This document shows, in pieces, positions 1 to 46,362 of a stretch of 64,000 nt of DNA. The translations under genes were made by a program, and so were the position numbers. Location: positions 18,005 to 82,004 of the forward strand of contig JAUMTX010000003.1 of assembly GCA_030530985.1 (NCBI GenBank). Direction: 5' to 3'. This stretch comes from Corynebacterium sp. (lineage in GTDB: Bacteria; Actinomycetota; Actinomycetes; Mycobacteriales; Mycobacteriaceae). The notes beneath the pieces were generated by a model. It saw only the letters and a program-made list of their open reading frames with translations, was not told the origin of the DNA and did no database searches. Every line of letters starts with the position of its first letter. The first letter of the stretch is position 1.

Positions 1-913
1 TTCGCAGCGGCGCTCGTAGACGTGTGGGGCGGCTGGCTCGGTGAAGACATATTCATCGCGGAAGGTCACGCAGCCGGAGTTTTCCATGGCGCCCATATTG
101 TATTCAGGGCAGAAGATCTGGTCGTACTTGCCAAATGGGTAGGCCATGCCAAAGTGCTTGTGGTAGTAGTCGAAGCCCTGGCGGGTCTGTTCAAAGATGA
201 CATCGGCATCCAGCGCATGCGCCACAGACTTGCGGCAGTAGATGCCGAATGGCACGGTCAGTTCGGTTGGCTCACCAGCCGGTGTTTCCGGGTGGTGTGT
301 GAGCGTGCCGCTCCAGGAGGAGCGCACCTCGTGGTATGGGCCAATGCAGAAGGCAACCAGGTAGGTGGAGACGCGGTAGCCGGTGGCACCTTCGTGCACG
401 GTGCCGTCCTCGGAGACGGTCATTTCTGGGTTGGAGATGACGCGCCAGTTGGCTGGGGTGCGTACCTTCATGGAGTAGCTGGCCTTCAAATCCGGCTGGT
501 CAAAGCAGGCGAAGACGCGCTTGGCGTCGGCGGTTTCAAACTGGGTGTACATGTACACTTCATTATCGGCTGGGTCCACATAGCGGTGGAGGCCCTGGCC
601 GGTGCGGGAGTAGAGGCAGCGTGCGCTAATGACCAGCTCATGTGGGCCGGCGCTGAGCGTCAGTGGGATGCCTTCTTCTTCGTGATAGGTCGCTGGGGTG
701 ATGTCTTCATCATCCAGCAAGACGGAGCTCACTTCGGCGGCACGTAGGTCGATAAAGGTGGAGCCATCCGCCTTTGCGGTGAATCGCACAGTGGTGGTGG
801 ATAGGAAGCTTTCCGCATCCCCGGTCACATCAAGGTCGATATGGTAGTTATCAATTTCAAGCAGGGCAGCGCGGGCTTCTGCTTCGATACGTGTTAGATT
901 TGTGGAACTCATA
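1..913 (-). CDS. pepN: Aminopeptidase N (M1 family), N-terminal part only; the gene continues beyond the window start
   Basis: The minus-strand translation from the ATG at 913 reads MSSTNLTRIEAEARAALLEIDNYHIDLD...GAMEN..., carrying the GAMEN exopeptidase motif typical of M1 aminopeptidases. It is not in the ORF track because it runs off the window edge. The + ORF 22..747 is its shadow. Confidence 0.85.
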
Positions 914-1581: not shown

Positions 1582-2373
1582 CTAGCAGCTTTCAAGGACG
1601 CGTTGGATCGCGTCCTTTTCTGCTTGGGTGACCCAGAGGTTATAGCGTGCCTTGACGATAACCTGGTGTTCCACATAGGTGCAGCGGTATTCCTTATTTG
1701 GTGGGAGCCAGGAGGCCGCATCATAGTCGGACTTTTGCTGGTTTGTTGGGCCATCGACCGCAACGAGGTTATCAGGGTCATTGGCGAGTGCGGTGCGGGT
1801 GGCAAAGTCGAGCTGCTGCGCACCGGTCTGCCAGGCATTGGAGAGGGCAACAATGTGGTCGATCTGCACATCGGCCGAGGTGTCCTTACCTCGGGTGAAG
1901 TTAATAATCTTGCCTGTATATGGGTCGTGGAGTACACCGGATTGGACGGTACAACTATTGCGCATGACTTTCTCGGTCAGGTCGCGCTGCAGAATGTCAT
2001 TGCGGGTATCGCAGCCATTATGGCCACCGGCAACATTGACATCATCGGTCCAGGCTTCACCAAATTCGCTGCGGCTATAGCCTGTCTTTGGTGCGCGACC
2101 CTTGACTGGCAGGCTGTCGAGCAAGGCCAGGGTAGAGGAGGCTTGGGCAGTAACAGTGGTGGTGACAACCGGGGTTTCAGTGACTGTTTCGGTTTCGGTC
2201 GAAGTCTCGGTCGAAGTCTCGGTTGGGGTGCCTGCTTCGGAGGAGCTTTCTGGTGCTGCGCTTGGGCTGCTTGAGCTTGTAATTCCGGCGGGGGAGGTGG
2301 CCACATCTGTGTGCCCACAAGCGGCCGCTGCCAGCGCCAATACTGAGTAAAGAGCAAAGTTAATAATACGCAT
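1582..2373 (-). CDS. Secreted lipoprotein with a C-terminal DUF1524/His-Me-finger (HNH-like) nuclease domain
   Basis: A signal peptide with a lipobox (LAAAACG) is followed by a Ser/Thr/Glu-rich low-complexity linker (TETSTETSTETETVTETP). The C-terminal domain carries GHNGCDTRNDIL...IDHIVALSNAW, typical of DUF1524 nucleases. Confidence 0.7.
   Translation of the reverse strand: MRIINFALYSVLALAAAACGHTDVATSPAGITSSSSPSAAPESSSEAGTPTETSTETSTETETVTETPVVTTTVTAQASSTLALLDSLPVKGRAPKTGYSRSEFGEAWTDDVNVAGGHNGCDTRNDILQRDLTEKVMRNSCTVQSGVLHDPYTGKIINFTRGKDTSADVQIDHIVALSNAWQTGAQQLDFATRTALANDPDNLVAVDGPTNQQKSDYDAASWLPPNKEYRCTYVEHQVIVKARYNLWVTQAEKDAIQRVLESC
2197..2220. repeat. Perfect 12-bp tandem duplication (ggtcgaagtctc x2) inside the linker-coding part of the nuclease lipoprotein gene
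   Basis: Seen directly in the sequence. It encodes the TETS repeats and is preceded by a ggtttc ggtttc mini-repeat. Confidence 0.8.
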
Positions 2374-2412
2374 GGTGACTTTAGCCTACCGCATGCATGG
2401 AAATGTAGGGAA

Positions 2413-2895
2413 TTGAGTTATGATAGACGTATGCGTGTATACCTAGGAGCGGACCATGCAGGGTTCGAAACAAAGAATGCCATTGCTGAGCATCTCAAAG
2501 CCCAGGGTCATGAGGTTATTGACTGTGGTGCTCATGAGTATGACGCCAATGATGACTATCCAGCCTACTGCATTGAGGCTGCTACCCGAGTAGTCAATGA
2601 TCCAGGTTCCTTGGGCATTGTTCTCGGTGGTTCTGGTAATGGTGAGCAGATTGCCGCTAATAAGGTCAAGGGTGCACGTTGTGCTTTGGCTTGGTCTGTG
2701 GAGACCGCAAAGCTGGCACGCGAGCACAATAATGCTCAGTTGATTGGTCTTGGTGGCCGTATGCACTCCGAGGAGGAGGCTTTGGCTATTGTTGATGCCT
2801 TTATTTCTGAGGCATGGAGCAATGAGGAGCGCCACCAGCGTCGTATCGACATTCTCTCCGAGTATGAGAAGACTGGTATTGCCCCAGCTATCTAA
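2413..2895 (+). CDS. rpiB: Ribose-5-phosphate isomerase B
   Basis: MRVYLGADHAGFE...GSGNGEQIAANKV is the RpiB/LacAB signature. The start is either TTG at 2413 or ATG at 2431. Confidence 0.9.
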   Translation: MSYDRRMRVYLGADHAGFETKNAIAEHLKAQGHEVIDCGAHEYDANDDYPAYCIEAATRVVNDPGSLGIVLGGSGNGEQIAANKVKGARCALAWSVETAKLAREHNNAQLIGLGGRMHSEEEALAIVDAFISEAWSNEERHQRRIDILSEYEKTGIAPAI

Positions 2896-2983
2896 TTCTC
2901 TTCTACACATATAAACAGAGTGGCTACCTACTAAGTAGGTAGCCACTCTTTGCGGTTGGAAGTGGATATGCGGGGTTTGGACT

Positions 2984-3199
2984 TTAGGAAGAAGCAGCCT
3001 TCTTGCGCTCCTCGATCCAATCGAGGACTTCGTCCGAATCCCACAGAGTCAAGCCATGAAGCTTAGCGACCGGCTTTGGGGCACGGCCACGGCCAGCATA
3101 GGAGGTGAAAGTACCACGTGCAGTGCCAGAGCGCTGTGCACATTCAATGGCGGTCCAGAGTTCCTTACCGGTTTCGGAGTTAATAATCTTTGGGTTCAT
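2984..3199 (-). CDS. Small AlpA/excisionase-family (MerR-like) helix-turn-helix DNA-binding protein
   Basis: A 71-aa protein whose C-terminal motif RGRAPKPVAKLHGLTLWDSDEVLDWIE matches the AlpA/Xis pattern (P-K-P-V...W...EV..WI). The RBS is weak. Confidence 0.55.
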   Translation of the reverse strand: MNPKIINSETGKELWTAIECAQRSGTARGTFTSYAGRGRAPKPVAKLHGLTLWDSDEVLDWIEERKKAASS

Positions 3200-36301: not shown

Positions 36302-38119
36302 ATGCTTCATGCTAGATATATGAACGAATCCGACCCAATTAAAAAGACATCAGCGCAGTCGCTGGCTGCCGCGCAGCAAGATCCTGCGCCAGATGCTGAT
36401 CTGTCCAACACGGCCGGTGAGGCGATCTCCGCCACCCAGCAGCTGGCCGCTATGCTCGACCAAAAGCATGAAATCCCTGCCGATAATGCTCTCGGCGGCG
36501 GTGACTATGTTTATGACGAAGACCATCCTAATGTGGACTGGAAAGTCGTCGGACCAACCATCGCTATCATTTTGGCGGTTGTGGTCTGGGGTCTTGCTAG
36601 CCCAACGACTTTCACCGATTATGTAGCAACAGCCCTTGCGTGGATTGTTGATAGTTTCGGTTGGGCCTTTGTGCTCTTTAGCACGATGTTCCTGGTCTGT
36701 ATTCTATGCATCGCCGCATCCCGTTTCGGTAATATCCGCCTTGGCGGTGACCAAGAAGGACCAGAATTCAGTACCCCAAGCTGGATTGCCATGATGTTTG
36801 CCGCAGGTATGGGCATTGGTCTCATGTTCTACGGCACGACTGAGCCACTGACCTTCTTCCGTAATGGTGTTCCTAGCCATGGCTCCGGTGAAGTCTCTAC
36901 TGCCTTTGCTCAAACACTCTTCCACTGGACGCTGCATCCATGGGCAATCTACGCCATTGTTGGTCTAGCTATTGCTTATAGCACCTACCGTATGGGCCGT
37001 AAGCAGCTCATTAGCTCCGCCTTCACCCCATTGATTGGTGAGAAGCGTGCCGATGGCTGGCTTGGTCGCATCATTGACATTCTCTCCATTATTGCCACTG
37101 TTTTTGGTACCGCTGCTTCCTTGGGCATTGGTGCCACCCAGATTAGTGCTGGTCTTGACCGTTCCGGTCTTGTTAAAGACCCAAGCATGAATGTCATTAT
37201 TTGCATTGTTCTTGTATTGACCTTCGCCTTTGTACTCTCTGCTGTTAGTGGTGTGGGTAAGGGCATTCAGTATGTGTCCAATGCCAATATGGTGATGGCT
37301 GCGGTCCTGGCAATCTTTGTATTCCTTCTTGGCCCAACAGTTAATATCCTCAATATTCTCCCAACCGCATTGGGCGGATACTTCCAGGAATTCTTTGAAA
37401 TGGCCTCCCGCACCAGCGACTCCAATGGTGAAAATGTTGGTGGCTGGCTTTCCTCCTGGACCATCTTCTACTGGGCATGGTGGATCTCTTGGAGCCCATT
37501 CGTAGGTATGTTCTTGGCTCGTATTTCCCGTGGCCGTACTATCCGTGAGTTCATTGTTGGTGTGACCATTGTGCCGTCCATTCTCTCCCTGGTGTGGTTC
37601 TCCATCTTTGGTGGCACCGCTGTTCACCTGGAGCGTGTGGGCGAGTCTATCTGGGGTGAGGGTGACTCTCGCTCCCAGCTCTTTGACCTGCTCCACACTC
37701 TGCCTGCTGGCTTCATTGCCGGCATTGTAGCCATGGTTCTGCTGGCCACCTTCTTCATCACCTCTGCAGACTCTGCTTCTGCAGTGATGGGTACCTTGAG
37801 CCAGCATGGTCGCCTTGACCCATCCGGTTGGGTAGCTGCCTTCTGGGGCCTTTCCACCGCAGCCATTGGTATCACCCTGCTGCTTACCGGTGGTAGTGCA
37901 TCCCTGAATAACCTCCAGTACATGACCATTATTGTGGCAAGCCCATTCTTGCTCATCATTATTGGTCTGATGGTTGCCCTGGTCAAGGGTCTGCGTGAAG
38001 ACCCAATCTACCTGGACCACCGCGAGCAGCAGCGCTTCGCTATGCAGCTTGCACGTGAGCGCCGCATTCATGCTGAAGCCGTTCGCCGCGAATGGAAGAA
38101 GCACCATCACTGGGATTAA
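36302..38119 (+). CDS. BCCT-family (betaine/carnitine/choline) transporter
   Basis: The BCCT signature [24 protein letters not shown] is present. There are 12 TM helices and a charged C-terminal tail. Confidence 0.85.
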
Positions 38120-38269: not shown

Positions 38270-38623
38270 ATGACACACGCTACTGTTAAAGAACCAGGCT
38301 TCATTATCCGCATGCTTCCATTCATCGGAACCTATGTGGTTGCCTTCAATGTATCGTCCACCCTGAATGCAGAATCCATTAGCGGACTCTTCCTCATCTA
38401 TCTGGCAGTTATTGCAGTGGCTGCGATCGCCGTTATGGCATGGCTCCAAGTCAAGTACCCTAAGCCAAAGCGCCTCAAGGTATTCTTTGTTTACTCCGTT
38501 GGCCTATTGTGCTACGGCCTCATATTCCCAACAGGCTGGACTCGGTTTGTCATGATGCTGCTCGTACTGGCCTTCTTCTACCACCAGCTCAAAGCTAGCT
38601 ACAAAGACGAGAGCATAATCTAG
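38270..38623 (+). CDS. Small integral membrane protein (117 aa, 3-4 TM), unknown function
   Basis: A strong RBS (GGAGGAGGAG) and a TATAAT -10 lie upstream. GC content is lower than the neighbouring genes. Confidence 0.6.
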   Translation: MTHATVKEPGFIIRMLPFIGTYVVAFNVSSTLNAESISGLFLIYLAVIAVAAIAVMAWLQVKYPKPKRLKVFFVYSVGLLCYGLIFPTGWTRFVMMLLVLAFFYHQLKASYKDESII

Positions 38624-38721
38624 TATTCACCAGAGGCCCTGTCACCATTCGGTGGCAGGGTCTTTGCTATACTTAACCTCGTTCATATTTCCTAGTCGGA
38701 GGACTATATTCAGTTGATTCG

Positions 38722-38777
38722 CTAATCTCCACCCCCAGCTGTATAAACAGCCCATTTCTATACCCTTTGGAGATTAG
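38722..38777 (+). promoter_or_regulatory. 9-bp inverted repeat CTAATCTCC...GGAGATTAG spanning the ABC-F 5' region; the 3' arm contains the ABC-F Shine-Dalgarno
   Basis: Seen directly in the sequence. A 3-codon uORF (TTG ATT CGC TAA at 38714-38725) with an upstream GGAGG overlaps the 5' arm. Confidence 0.4.
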
Positions 38778-38779
38778 AC

Positions 38780-40261
38780 ATGTCACAGATTCAACTGCAC
38801 AATATTTCTTTTTCCTATTCCTCCGAGCCACTTCTGCACAATATTTCCCTCCACATTGGTGAAGGGGAGCGCGCCTGTATTCTCGGCCCTAATGGCAGCG
38901 GCAAAACCACCCTTCTCAAAATCATTGGTGGGCTCATTAGCCCAGACCAGGGCAGTGTTAATGGCAATGCTGTTCTTGAGGGCATTCCTGATACCGGCAC
39001 TGTGGAGCAATTCCTGCGCAGCCGCCTTGCGCAGAGCTTCGACACCATTGAAAATTTCAATGCGTCCCTAGCTACTGAGTCACTAGCCACCATGGGTGAA
39101 GACTATGATGCACTACTCACTGAAATGAGTGCCAAGAACCTGTGGGATATTGACCTGCGAATTCAAGAGGCCCTTGGTGATATTGACCGCGCCCAGAAAA
39201 TGGAGGAGCTCTCCCCAGGACAGCGCGCTCGACTGGGACTCGCTGTCATTGGTATTGCCCAGCCTGAGGTGCTGGTGCTCGATGAGCCAACCAACCACCT
39301 GGATAGCCAAGCGGTAGAGGAGCTCATTGCCATGGTGCGCGGATGGAATGGCCCCGTCATTATGGTGAGTCACGACCGTGCCTTTATCGAGGCCACAGCC
39401 ACAGTCATCTATGACCTCGACGTGGACTGCTGGCAGGCATTGGCTACGGCCAAGGGTGAAAACCTGGGTGGAATCTACCGCTGCAATGGCACCTATAGCG
39501 ACTATATGCGTGAAAAGACTGCTGCCCGTGAAGCCCATAAGGAAATTCATGCACGCCAGCAAAATGACAAGAAAGTGATTAATGCCCATAAAGAAGCCAG
39601 CGAAAAAATAGCAGGTGGTGGCACCAAGCTTGCGCAGGCTACCGGTATTTACAAGAAATTCTATTCCGATAAGGCCTCGGCCACAGCGAGGAATAGGACG
39701 CGCTCTGATGACCGCAAGCTTGAAGAGCTACAGGGCAGGGAAGTGCGAAAGCCCCGTGAGGCCGGCTTCGACTTTGAGATTCCAGCAGTGTCCCCGCGAG
39801 CAGGTATTGCCCTAGGGGAATGCAACCTTGCTTATGGTGAGCATCTGCTTGTCACCGGGCCAAATGGCATTGGTAAATCCACCTGGCTGCGCGACATAGT
39901 CGCAGCCAACCCAGAGCGAGTCACCTATATTCCGCAGGCTTTGCCCAAGCCGACGGAGCAGATAATAGGGGAGCGTGGTAAGGGCTTTATTCACCCACGC
40001 CTATGGTCGGTGCCAATCAAAGACCTCTCAGCCGGCAATGCGCGCCGGGCCCAATTGGCCCTGGCTATTGCACAAAAGCCAGAGATTCTGATTATTGATG
40101 AACCAACTAACTACTTGGATGTGGATAGCGTCGAAAAGCTAGAAGAGGAACTGAAAAAGTGGAATGGGACGCTCGTTGTAGCAACCCACGACACGTGGCT
40201 CATTGACCATTGGGAAGGCCAGCACCTACGCCTTCCCCTCCAAATCCTCGATGGAGAATAG
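38780..40261 (+). CDS. ABC-F family ATPase (two tandem ABC domains, no TMD); short, with degenerate signature motifs
   Basis: The Walker A motifs are GPNGSGKTT and GPNGIGKST. The signature motifs read LSPGQ and LSAGN rather than LSGGQ. The interdomain linker is about 130 aa. Confidence 0.8.
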   Translation: MSQIQLHNISFSYSSEPLLHNISLHIGEGERACILGPNGSGKTTLLKIIGGLISPDQGSVNGNAVLEGIPDTGTVEQFLRSRLAQSFDTIENFNASLATESLATMGEDYDALLTEMSAKNLWDIDLRIQEALGDIDRAQKMEELSPGQRARLGLAVIGIAQPEVLVLDEPTNHLDSQAVEELIAMVRGWNGPVIMVSHDRAFIEATATVIYDLDVDCWQALATAKGENLGGIYRCNGTYSDYMREKTAAREAHKEIHARQQNDKKVINAHKEASEKIAGGGTKLAQATGIYKKFYSDKASATARNRTRSDDRKLEELQGREVRKPREAGFDFEIPAVSPRAGIALGECNLAYGEHLLVTGPNGIGKSTWLRDIVAANPERVTYIPQALPKPTEQIIGERGKGFIHPRLWSVPIKDLSAGNARRAQLALAIAQKPEILIIDEPTNYLDVDSVEKLEEELKKWNGTLVVATHDTWLIDHWEGQHLRLPLQILDGE

Positions 40262-40561
40262 GGCGGGCTGGTCATCATCGAAATTCGGTGCTGCCAGGTC
40301 AATAGCCATTTTCAAGGCTTCAAGGTCGCGGGGCTCAACCCAATAGAGAACGGTGCTGAGCCTGCGGCCATTTTTATTTAGATCGCGATAACGCGCACGG
40401 TTCAAAGGAAAAATAGTATTGCGCATCAGCATCAAAACCTCATCGCTGATTTCGGCGCGCTTAACTACTTCCTTGTCATCAAGGCCATGAAGGAAGAGGG
40501 TGAATACCTCCTCTAGCTTGGACAATAGCTCCTTATTCGACATAGCTTTTGCTTTCCACAT
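40226..40561 (-). CDS. Hypothetical protein (111 aa); its 3' end overlaps the convergent ABC-F gene by 36 bp
   Basis: The ORF has lower-GC codon usage and no recognisable domain. The start is probably at MSNKELL. Confidence 0.4.
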   Translation of the reverse strand: MWKAKAMSNKELLSKLEEVFTLFLHGLDDKEVVKRAEISDEVLMLMRNTIFPLNRARYRDLNKNGRRLSTVLYWVEPRDLEALKMAIDLAAPNFDDDQPALFSIEDLEGKA

Positions 40562-40614
40562 ACTTATATTTTCACTGCTAAAGCTTTAGTTAGCAAACCG
40601 AAAGATAATAGGAT

Positions 40615-40632
40615 TTGTTGATTCATCAACAA
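40615..40632. promoter_or_regulatory. Perfect 18-bp palindrome TTGTTGATTCATCAACAA in the divergent promoter upstream of the FMN reductase gene
   Basis: Seen directly in the sequence; likely a transcription-factor operator. Confidence 0.55.
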
Positions 40633-40650
40633 TCTGTTAAAGTGTGTCCT

Positions 40651-44643: not shown

Positions 44644-46362
<1,719 letters not shown>

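Follow-up and report, generated by a model that had tools for sequence, protein, structure and literature searches.

The DNA analysed here, hereafter called the window, is a 64,000-nt stretch of a Corynebacterium metagenome-assembled genome (MAG; assembly GCA_030530985.1, contig JAUMTX010000003.1, positions 18,005 to 82,004), and our subject is a gene for a protein of 493 amino acids (aa) together with the short leader in front of it. By sequence comparison, the product is a soluble ABC-F ATPase of the actinobacterial subfamily AAF5, which is related to ARE4 (OleB, CarA, SrmB, TlrC). The leader carries a three-codon upstream open reading frame (uORF) whose stop codon lies in an inverted repeat with the Shine-Dalgarno (SD) sequence of the ABC-F gene, and comparison among genera identifies it as a conserved, specific RNA motif of AAF5 of about 95 nt, which is not in Rfam. 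The best explanation, and in our view a fairly probable one, is that the AAF5 gene is controlled at the level of translation by its own leader, through a drug-stalled ribosome on the uORF. An ARE-like ABC-F gene behind a mini-uORF leader is a kind of system that is already known, and it is the recognition of this leader as a motif of the subfamily that is new.

Leader of the AAF5 gene

The leader of the window gene measures about 80 nt from the SD of the uORF to the ATG of the main gene (Table 1). A previous reading of this DNA from its letters only (the sequence-only reading) had described a 9-bp inverted repeat upstream of the ABC-F gene. The arms and their position were right, and the perfect repeat in fact comprises 10 bp (CTAATCTCCA and TGGAGATTAG), separated by a 36-nt loop. 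When we read the sequence, the coordinates that had been given for the open reading frames, the uORF and the arms were likewise correct, and the GGAGG, a TATAAA box and a 36-bp gene overlap were present as described. The intergenic region before the gene was shuffled 5000 times with dinucleotides preserved, and a perfect complement of at least 9 nt to the 14 nt before the ATG arose in just 31 cases. The isolated duplex between the anti-SD arm and the SD arm amounts to -12.8 kcal/mol, and the whole leader folds at -28.8 kcal/mol in RNAfold (z = -3.8). When the footprint of a stalled ribosome was masked in silico, the strong fold was gone and the energy went to -12.6/-14.7 kcal/mol. Outside this helix, the minimum free energy (MFE) structure contains an outer helix that joins the uORF start codon to early codons of the ABC-F gene; the putative counterpart in other leaders is CGATGA with TCATCG (codons 3-6 of the main ORF), which is less regular than the anti-SD:SD helix. 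Rfam returned nothing in the leader region at permissive thresholds, and just two distant tRNAs in the whole window at gathering thresholds.

The same leader was present in 12 of the 13 AAF5 loci examined, covering six named genera (Corynebacterium, Varibaculum, Trueperella, Actinobaculum, Gulosibacter and Devriesea) and metagenomes. All 12 leaders have exactly three sense codons in the uORF, a stop codon that starts the stretch U(A/G)AUCUCC, and the partner GGAGAU(U/C)A at the ribosome-binding site of the ABC-F gene, and in each an SD-like purine run stands 10-13 nt before the uORF start. The encoded peptides of the 11 leaders other than that of the window vary: MIH in L001, the corresponding locus of a sister MAG (TTG ATT CAC TAA); MTL in four leaders, namely Varibaculum cambriense (ATG ACA TTG TAA), a Varibaculum-like metagenome contig (ATG ACT TTG TAA), Trueperella pyogenes (ATG ACG TTG TGA) and Devriesea agamarum (ATG ACC CTG TGA); MVL in Actinobaculum suis (ATG GTG CTG TAA); MSL in Gulosibacter hominis (ATG AGC CTG TGA); MNS in another metagenome contig (ATG AAC TCT TGA); MKM in Corynebacterium kozikiae (TTG AAG ATG TAA); and MIL and MLL in two further loci (ATG ATT CTG TGA and ATG CTT CTG TGA). 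Between the window and L001, the TATACT hexamer, AGGAGG, the uORF and both arms are kept, around a loop that has diverged and has no TATAAA in L001.

The anti-SD:SD helix shows covariation. In a structure-blind MAFFT alignment of 10 leaders, 95.5% of the cells formed standard pairs, compared with 34-41% when the 3' partners were slid. Four pairs showed compensatory change, one of which involves the middle base of the uORF stop codon (A-U in 4 leaders, G-C in 4), such that the choice between TAA and TGA covaries with the U or C after the SD. In the shuffle test, only 0-4 of 500 shuffles reached the observed value for four of five measures; the count of further pair types was not above the shuffles. 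A 13-row alignment gave 96.0% paired cells (24-44% when slid) and six pairs with compensatory change, and it leans toward the structure because it was fitted to a covariance model. A second MAFFT alignment, of 12 leaders, placed the two Corynebacterium SD arms one column out of register and was excluded from the counts. The RNAfold MFE structure holds the helix in every leader folded, partly formed in A. suis and with shifted pairing in C. kozikiae. In addition, the Actinomycetales leaders have a covarying inner hairpin, CUC(G/A)GC-NNN-GC(C/U)GAG, which is missing in the two Corynebacterium MAG leaders; the small local hairpin in the loop of the window leader is not homologous to it and is absent from L001.

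At one pair, six U-G wobbles were observed, which are compatible with sense-strand RNA alone. We also considered the repeat as a DNA operator palindrome and rejected this, because the wobbles fit sense-strand RNA alone and the repeat is kept in genomes without the helix-turn-helix-like gene for a 111-aa protein that adjoins the ABC-F gene in the window.

The specificity of the motif was assessed with a covariance model built from 10 leaders, with 78 loci of other ABC-F genes (L020-L097) as the negative set. The model had no match in these 78 loci and none in the window outside the leader, and it matched the two AAF5 loci outside its training, those with MIL and MLL, right at the gene start (69.9 and 54.2 bits). 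The L019 locus (40% identity) has no leader. A scan of the genome collection with the single protein had yielded one true relative, L001, the peptide patterns being too specific; a metagenome scan with an alignment relied on generic ABC motifs and gave mostly other ABC-F subfamilies, which were reused as the negative controls. The attenuator layout with a mini-uORF that the sequence-only reading had proposed thus holds up well, as the uORF and the anti-SD:SD design are kept with compensatory changes across distant AAF5 genes.

Subfamily and structure of the ABC-F protein

Resistance to lincosamides, streptogramins, pleuromutilins, macrolides, phenicols and oxazolidinones is increasingly caused by ABC-F proteins that protect the ribosome. 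Of the phylum-specific actinobacterial subfamilies flagged by Murina et al., two later turned out to be resistance factors, namely AAF1 (Ard1) and AAF6 (OcrA/MAB_2736c). AAF5 is among the groups that these authors predicted as new resistance factors (PMC6723617). In their 2019 supplementary alignment it is represented by Actinomyces cardiffensis WP_005962792, which carries the family motifs, and the genomes tabulated there with AAF5, beside EttA, Uup and AAF6, include those of Trueperella pyogenes, Varibaculum cambriense and Mobiluncus curtisii (PMC6723617).

The window protein is 100% identical to an NCBI entry labelled 'MAG: Corynebacterium sp.'. PF00005 matches it twice, and it has no membrane domain and, in the AlphaFold model, no hydrophobic membrane segment. 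The best curated model was NF000355 ('ribosomal protection-like ABC-F') with 256 bits, ahead of the models for producer-type ARE4, Uup and EttA; the score to NF000171 (ARE4) was 206 bits against a cut-off of 800. NF000355 was also the best model for four other AAF5 members, with 270-290 bits, all under its cut-off of 380. For BLASTP and the tree, we used 34 reference sequences drawn from E. coli and the Murina supplement. BLASTP gave 357 bits to the AAF5 reference WP_005962792, 193 to AAF4, 187 to AAF3, 179 to ARE4 and 98 to EttA, and the housekeeping ABC-Fs and AAF6 shared 24-28% identity (98-149 bits) with the window protein.

A neighbour-joining tree (46 sequences, 477 columns, 100 bootstraps), which is a distance tree and not built on the full maximum-likelihood data set of Murina et al., placed the window protein inside the AAF5 clade with 100% bootstrap. 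AAF5 was sister to ARE4+AAF4 (91% bootstrap), apart from EttA, Uup, YheS, YbiT and AAF6. The suggestion of a resistance-type (ARE-like) ABC-F, made from the letters, is therefore in line with the phylogeny, which puts the protein next to ARE4/AAF4 and away from the housekeeping clades. The pair of window and L001 proteins forms the earliest and longest branch of the clade: the L001 protein (484 aa) is 66% identical to that of the window, and the next relatives are about 46-49% identical and mostly 537-579 aa long (one has 510 aa). Their hosts are Trueperella, Varibaculum, Actinobaculum, Dermabacter, Devriesea, Gulosibacter and a few Corynebacterium. Identity to ARE4 and AAF4 is only 28-30%, and whereas ARE4 protects macrolide producers, the hosts of AAF5 are animal-associated.

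Walker A, Walker B, the catalytic Glu and the H-loop are intact in both cassettes, that is, in both nucleotide-binding domains (NBD1 and NBD2). The signatures LSPGQ and LSAGN, which had been taken as degenerate and as pointing to an ARE protein, are indeed there. However, LSPGQ and LS(A/D)GN are nearly invariant in AAF5 in alignments of 10 and of 54 members, with one LSPGE in Varibaculum, and they are therefore family traits, neither decay nor evidence for the ARE class. A non-canonical third residue in the NBD2 signature also occurs in ARE4, AAF4, AAF1 and AAF3; in the sister group ARE4/AAF4 the forms are LSTGQ, LSYGQ and LSVGQ. Specifically, the window protein carries the AAF5 motifs TLSPGQ, SHDRAFIE, RTRxDDxKLE, LSAGNxRR and the linker tip IAxGG...KKF.

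The Corynebacterium form is about 50 residues shorter than most AAF5 proteins (484-493 vs 537-579 aa). This short length is explained by four lineage-specific deletions in the arm and NBD2, common to the window and L001 alone: one at the end of the arm, one of 13 residues at the first strands of NBD2, and two of 15 and 9 residues between Walker A and the NBD2 signature. Accordingly, 56 residues separate Walker A 2 from signature 2 in the window protein, compared with 78-80 in other AAF5 and 86-89 in E. coli ABC-Fs. H-loop 1 and Walker A 2 lie 163 residues apart, which is 21-23 more than in E. coli EttA, Uup, YheS and YbiT (140-142) and less than the 176-177 of four other AAF5 members. Of the earlier description of a short ABC-F with a long linker, the linker was borne out relative to E. 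coli, although it is shorter than in other AAF5, and the shortness turned out to reflect the lineage deletions, not an ARE-type trait.

The AlphaFold model (predicted local distance difference test 86.5, predicted template modelling score 0.80) shows a linker hairpin with helices at residues 239-278 and 290-319 and a compact NBD2. EttA, Uup, YheS, YbiT and AAF6 (OcrA/Rv1473) have the same two-cassette fold with a helical linker. The best PDB matches of the model were ribosome-bound EttA, Uup, PoxtA, VmlR2 and YbiT, with template modelling scores of 0.64-0.71; since these include both housekeeping and resistance proteins, the fold does not separate the two. The product is predicted to bind the ribosome. 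The ratio of nonsynonymous to synonymous substitution rates (dN/dS) against the sister MAG was 0.15, with synonymous sites near saturation, and this purifying selection indicates that the gene is not a pseudogene.

Proposed mechanism and comparison with known leaders

For the scheme proposed here, we infer the transcription start, the translation of the uORF, drug-dependent stalling, the class of inducer and the resistance function. In the off state, the 10-bp helix between the anti-SD arm and the SD arm would hide the ribosome-binding site of the ABC-F gene. In the absence of drug, a ribosome would translate the uORF, whose own SD would be exposed, and depart, and the helix would reform. In the on state, a ribosome held on the uORF would cover the anti-SD arm (+9 to +18 from the uORF start), which would free the main SD and raise ABC-F synthesis. 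A ribosome with the start codon in the P site would protect the RNA to about +16, and one held a little later, when codon 3 occupies the P site and the A site contains the stop codon, would reach further. What holds the ribosome might be a drug that inhibits the peptidyl-transferase centre (lincosamide, streptogramin A, pleuromutilin), acting at the start codon; alternatively, the ribosome might be held on the stop codon. The 36-nt loop would give a second ribosome room to load on the main gene, and the ABC-F protein would act on drug-stalled ribosomes, feeding back on its own induction. The invariant length of three codons would suit a stall at or just after initiation that still covers the arm. 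As the helix lacks a U tract behind it in every leader, the control would be of the translational type.

This design recalls that of ermC, in which the SD of the resistance gene is sequestered in a hairpin and opened by a ribosome stall on an upstream leader ORF; a hidden SD and an upstream leader ORF are the features shared with the AAF5 leader. With its 19 codons, the leader peptide of ermC detects macrolides via the nascent chain in the exit tunnel. Sensing of this kind is beyond a peptide of three codons, which would point to a stall at initiation or termination instead. Regulatory uORFs of three or four codons have been described for cplR (MRI), vmlR (MIN), vmlR2 (MK[L/Q]) and lsaA (MAGN) (PMC10201436). 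In Streptomyces coelicolor, are5scL1 (MLV, with a native TTG start) stalls ribosomes at the start codon with lincosamides, streptogramin A and pleuromutilins, not with erythromycin (PMC12421871). Like the leaders of cplR, vmlR, vmlR2, lsaA and are5sc, that of AAF5 has a three-codon uORF with its own SD beside a structure that hides the main SD, and the window uORF starts with TTG as are5scL1 does (PMC10201436, PMC12421871). Unlike them (190-230 nt, mainly with a terminator), it has a length of only about 80 nt, no terminator, and the uORF stop within the anti-SD arm. Since the stop codon always lies within this arm and the uORF always has three codons, a bolder idea is that the leader might sense a block of termination and not of initiation.

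Several points weigh against drug-induced control of a resistance gene. The spacing of 10-13 nt between the uORF and its SD is longer than the usual optimum in every leader, and masking the ribosome footprint raised the mean unpaired probability of the main SD modestly in some leaders (in the window from 0.21 to 0.30-0.39). Two -10-like boxes within the leader, TATATT and TATAAA, could start transcripts without the uORF or the 5' arm. The AAF5 gene of Dermabacter hominis has no leader, just a 60-nt divergent spacer. With respect to the protein, the window sequence misses the curated cut-off of NF000355 (380 bits), and the Corynebacterium form, with 13 + 24 residues of NBD2 lost, may differ in activity from other AAF5. 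Moreover, the hosts of AAF5 are animal-associated bacteria and not antibiotic producers, and a literature search found no paper on AAF5 function or resistance.

Alternative explanations

The strongest competitor accepts the leader as described and makes the ABC-F protein a general translation-rescue factor, which would be induced by slowed initiation or early elongation (starvation, hard-to-translate peptides, cold). A fold that matches housekeeping and resistance ABC-Fs equally would suit such a role, as would hosts that are not antibiotic producers and a chromosomal gene found at the same locus in two species with native composition; AAF6 (OcrA/MAB_2736c), moreover, has growth roles besides resistance (PMC13041422). 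On the other hand, AAF5 is patchy and not core: only some species carry it (some Actinomycetaceae in the table of Murina et al.), and it is missing in a close Corynebacterium relative, the contig L101. In the tree it groups with ARE4/AAF4 and not with EttA, Uup, YheS or YbiT. Two serine recombinase genes adjoin the A. suis copy, and a Trueperella gene shares 96% identity with one from a 'Corynebacterium' MAG. In the cases documented so far, three-codon uORFs sense drugs directed at the peptidyl-transferase centre (PMC10201436, PMC12421871). We therefore regard a rescue factor as unlikely, though still the first of the alternatives.

The second alternative concerns the transcription start. After the gene for a 117-aa protein that precedes the ABC-F gene lies a hairpin (Table 1), which the terminator scan missed because of its short T run; the equivalent hairpin in L001 was scored as terminator-like. 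Transcription from upstream probably stops at the window hairpin, in which case the ABC-F gene would need its own promoter. If transcription started inside the leader, at TATATT (38705-38710) or TATAAA (38742-38747), neither the uORF nor the 5' arm would be part of the mRNA, which would make the repeat a relic. TTCATA-17-TATATT at 38682-38710 can be read as such a promoter, and corynebacterial promoters tolerate weak -35 boxes. Neither box is kept in L001, though, where TATACT upstream of the uORF SD is, the sole one of the three -10-like boxes conserved in position and sequence (gcTTATACTTa); the uORF and both arms are kept between genomes that are near synonymous saturation; and the promoter-like calls in the region (6, against 2.7 +/- 1.5 in shuffles) exceed the shuffles by just about 2 standard deviations. 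We consider an internal start improbable. The TATAAA box had been put forward by the sequence-only reading as a possible start; the box exists, and as a promoter we rejected it, because it is not conserved in L001 and sits in the loop of a 5-bp hairpin.

A third possibility, to which we give slightly less weight again, is that the ABC-F of the Corynebacterium lineage is a decaying or neofunctionalised remnant with a trimmed NBD2. The four deletions are found in the window and L001 alone, and one removes the first strands of NBD2, which from the alignment would be the usual site of the A-loop; the pair also sits on a long branch. Set against this, two species whose proteins have diverged at 34% of residues both keep the frame intact, with the low dN/dS given above, the catalytic motifs are all kept, NBD2 is modelled confidently by AlphaFold, and the leader is maintained.

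Least probable of all is control by premature transcription termination as in vmlR, lmo0919 and lmrC instead of SD masking: most characterised ARE ABC-F leaders do use terminators (PMC10201436, PMC12421871) and a scan marked the 38738-38751 hairpin, with CCATTTCTAT behind it, as terminator-like, but its stem has 5 bp, the T tract is poor, the hairpin is missing in L001, terminator-like calls in the region (4, against 2.8 +/- 1.8) are not above shuffles, and in other leaders the inner hairpin and the anti-SD:SD helix have no U run after them. An intrinsic terminator or antiterminator was accordingly rejected, as no leader has a U tract after the helix and the 38738-38751 hairpin is not conserved.

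Returning to drug-induced translational control, a wider proposal can be made, which we hold tentatively and with some doubt: AAF5 with its leader would give Actinomycetota that live with animals and humans an inducible means of ribosome protection, previously unrecognised and at times transferred horizontally, which drugs acting on the peptidyl-transferase centre would turn on. The Corynebacterium form would be a naturally minimised working ABC-F, without the first strands and a portion of the helical subdomain of NBD2. The leader gives AAF5 the regulatory signature of an inducible resistance gene and offers a compact motif for finding such genes. Among the bacteria that carry AAF5 are Trueperella pyogenes, a pathogen of veterinary importance, Varibaculum, Actinobaculum suis, some Corynebacterium and commensals of human skin and the urogenital tract. 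If the proposal is true, it would account for some of the tolerance, intrinsic or inducible, of these bacteria to 50S-targeting drugs, the inducers would include lincosamides, pleuromutilins or streptogramin A, all used in livestock, and the trimmed Corynebacterium variant would show how much of its second cassette an ABC-F protein can lose. If the resistance prediction fails, the leader would still be a clean natural case of purely translational control by a three-codon uORF.

Distribution and possible mobility of AAF5 genes

No AAF5 gene was found among the PLSDB plasmids, where the best matches were Streptomyces ARE-type genes of 31% identity. In Actinobaculum suis (LFUS01000017; L015:4688-7533), two large serine recombinase genes directly follow the AAF5 gene and a TetR gene lies upstream, an arrangement suggestive of a mobile element. 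An AAF5 protein that carries the label of a Corynebacterium glucuronolyticum MAG shares 96% identity with a Trueperella pecoris protein (P0008 versus P0011; P0011 was not located on any contig), and such identity across orders reflects either a recent transfer or a mis-binned contig.

In Trueperella pyogenes (JBAGLR010000002), we observed a 146-nt direct repeat of 92% identity (L014:1818-1963 and 2909-3054), made up of the AAF5 leader and the first ~54 nt of the ABC-F ORF, which flanks a RelB/ParE pair (2111-2739, minus strand). The covariance model matched the upstream copy, which was outside its training, with 77 bits. This arrangement looks like the insertion of a cassette at the 5' end of the gene with duplication. 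In Varibaculum cambriense (L009:4678-6548), three RelB genes with ParE/YafQ partners, forming toxin-antitoxin pairs, are located directly 3' of the AAF5 gene. In Corynebacterium kozikiae (JANIKJ010000008; L011:2644-2717), a tRNA-Glu(CTC) lies about 190 nt upstream of the AAF5 leader and is a possible integration site. The leaderless AAF5 gene of Dermabacter hominis (L012:2941-3001) is divergent, over the 60 nt mentioned above, from a gene for an Eis-like acetyltransferase (Acetyltransf_9/17 + SCP2_2), a family linked to aminoglycoside resistance in mycobacteria.

Locus and neighbouring genes

Table 1 Features of the AAF5 locus in the window and segments of its ABC-F protein.
Feature	Position	Strand	Details
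BCCT betaine transporter gene	36302-38119		
117-aa orphan protein gene, neighbour outside the system	38270-38623	+	strong SD upstream
Hairpin after the 117-aa gene	38637-38660	+	CCCTGTCACC-ATTC-GGTGGCAGGG, weak T tail
TATACT, -10-like hexamer, candidate leader promoter	38668-38673	+	putative start ~38680
SD of the uORF, GGAGG	38698-38702	+	11 nt before uORF start
Outer helix, 5' strand, CAGTTGA	38711-38717	+	includes uORF start codon; RNAfold MFE
Three-codon uORF, TTG-ATT-CGC-TAA	38714-38725	+	Met-Ile-Arg-stop
Anti-SD arm, CTAATCTCCA	38722-38731	+	overlaps last base of codon 3 and uORF stop; paired in MFE
Small local hairpin in loop, GCTGT-ATAA-ACAGC	38738-38751	+	contains TATAAA
SD arm, TGGAGATTAG	38768-38777	+	with ABC-F SD (GGAG); pairs with 38722-38731
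ABC-F ATPase gene, subfamily AAF5, 493 aa	38780-40261	+	profile matches, BLASTP, tree, AlphaFold model
Outer helix, 3' strand, TCAACTG	38791-38797	+	ABC-F codons 4-6; RNAfold MFE
111-aa lineage-specific protein gene, neighbour outside the system	40226-40561	-	homologues in L001 and L101 alone
ABC-F protein, NBD1	residues 1-238		Walker A 36, LSPGQ 144, Walker B 164, H-loop motif SHDR 197 (His198)
ABC-F protein, helical-hairpin linker	residues 239-319		
ABC-F protein, NBD2	residues ~343-485		Walker A 360, LSAGN 416, Walker B 436, H-loop motif THDT 469 (His470)

The gene order in the window is rsmI, BCCT betaine transporter, 117-aa ORF, ABC-F, 111-aa ORF (minus strand), FMN reductase, metG and tatD. 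Synteny in L001 is the same, minus the 117-aa gene. In L101, the third related Corynebacterium contig, the order is rsmI, BCCT, FMN reductase, a small gene, metG and tatD, without ABC-F; the small gene (99 aa) and the FMN reductase gene are thus swapped relative to the window and L001 (L101:3102-7898). From this swapped order and the absence of ABC-F, the stretch between rsmI and metG can be described as a rearrangement-prone variable region. The ABC-F gene is an insertion or deletion within this stretch, present in some of the related Corynebacterium genomes and absent from others.

The 117-aa protein has 3-4 hydrophobic segments, in keeping with the multi-transmembrane protein described before. 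A database search with it returned just the query, Pfam and NCBIfam gave no credible match, and its gene is not present at L001 or L101. The 111-aa gene is convergent with the ABC-F gene, and it is their 3' ends that overlap by 36 bp. Its homologues in L001 (59% identity) and L101 (43%) were the two small relatives in a full HMMER scan of 1.8 billion representatives, which gave an extra weak partial match (E 3.7e-06) to a 2043-aa protein; a word-based homologue search found the query itself alone, and Pfam and NCBIfam had nothing credible. The nonsynonymous proportion of differences (pN 0.29) is far under the synonymous one (pS 0.84), and the gene is therefore coding. As it is present in L101, where no ABC-F exists, it is independent of the ABC-F gene.

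The sequence-only reading had treated the 117-aa, ABC-F and 111-aa genes as one islet of lower GC. The gene content of the related contigs speaks otherwise, the 117-aa gene being absent from L001 and the 111-aa gene present in L101 without ABC-F. In other genera, the genes flanking AAF5 have nothing in common with those of the window or with each other. A module of three genes was therefore rejected, since its flanking genes are nowhere conserved along with AAF5. With respect to composition, the segment 38270-40561 has 51.4% GC compared with a window mean of 53.7% (standard deviation 1.9% for stretches of the same size), and 11.7% of such stretches are as low or lower, so the deviation is not significant, an outcome that the sequence-only reading had itself named as counting against its view. 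The ABC-F gene itself has 53.3% GC and 56.3% at third codon positions (GC3), close to the 52.8% and 55.6% of the BCCT gene. What lowers the figure for the segment is its intergenic DNA together with the two small genes; the GC3 of these genes, at 59-61%, is not low. A compositional genomic island was rejected on these grounds, the composition of the ABC-F gene being native.

Two further low-GC spacers were observed in the window. One, at 44700-45150, dips to 40-43% GC upstream of a 383-aa ORF (45211-46362) and had no Rfam match at the gathering threshold. The other is the 80-nt spacer at 40562-40641 (28.7% GC) between the divergent 111-aa and FMN reductase genes, which probably holds the promoters of both.

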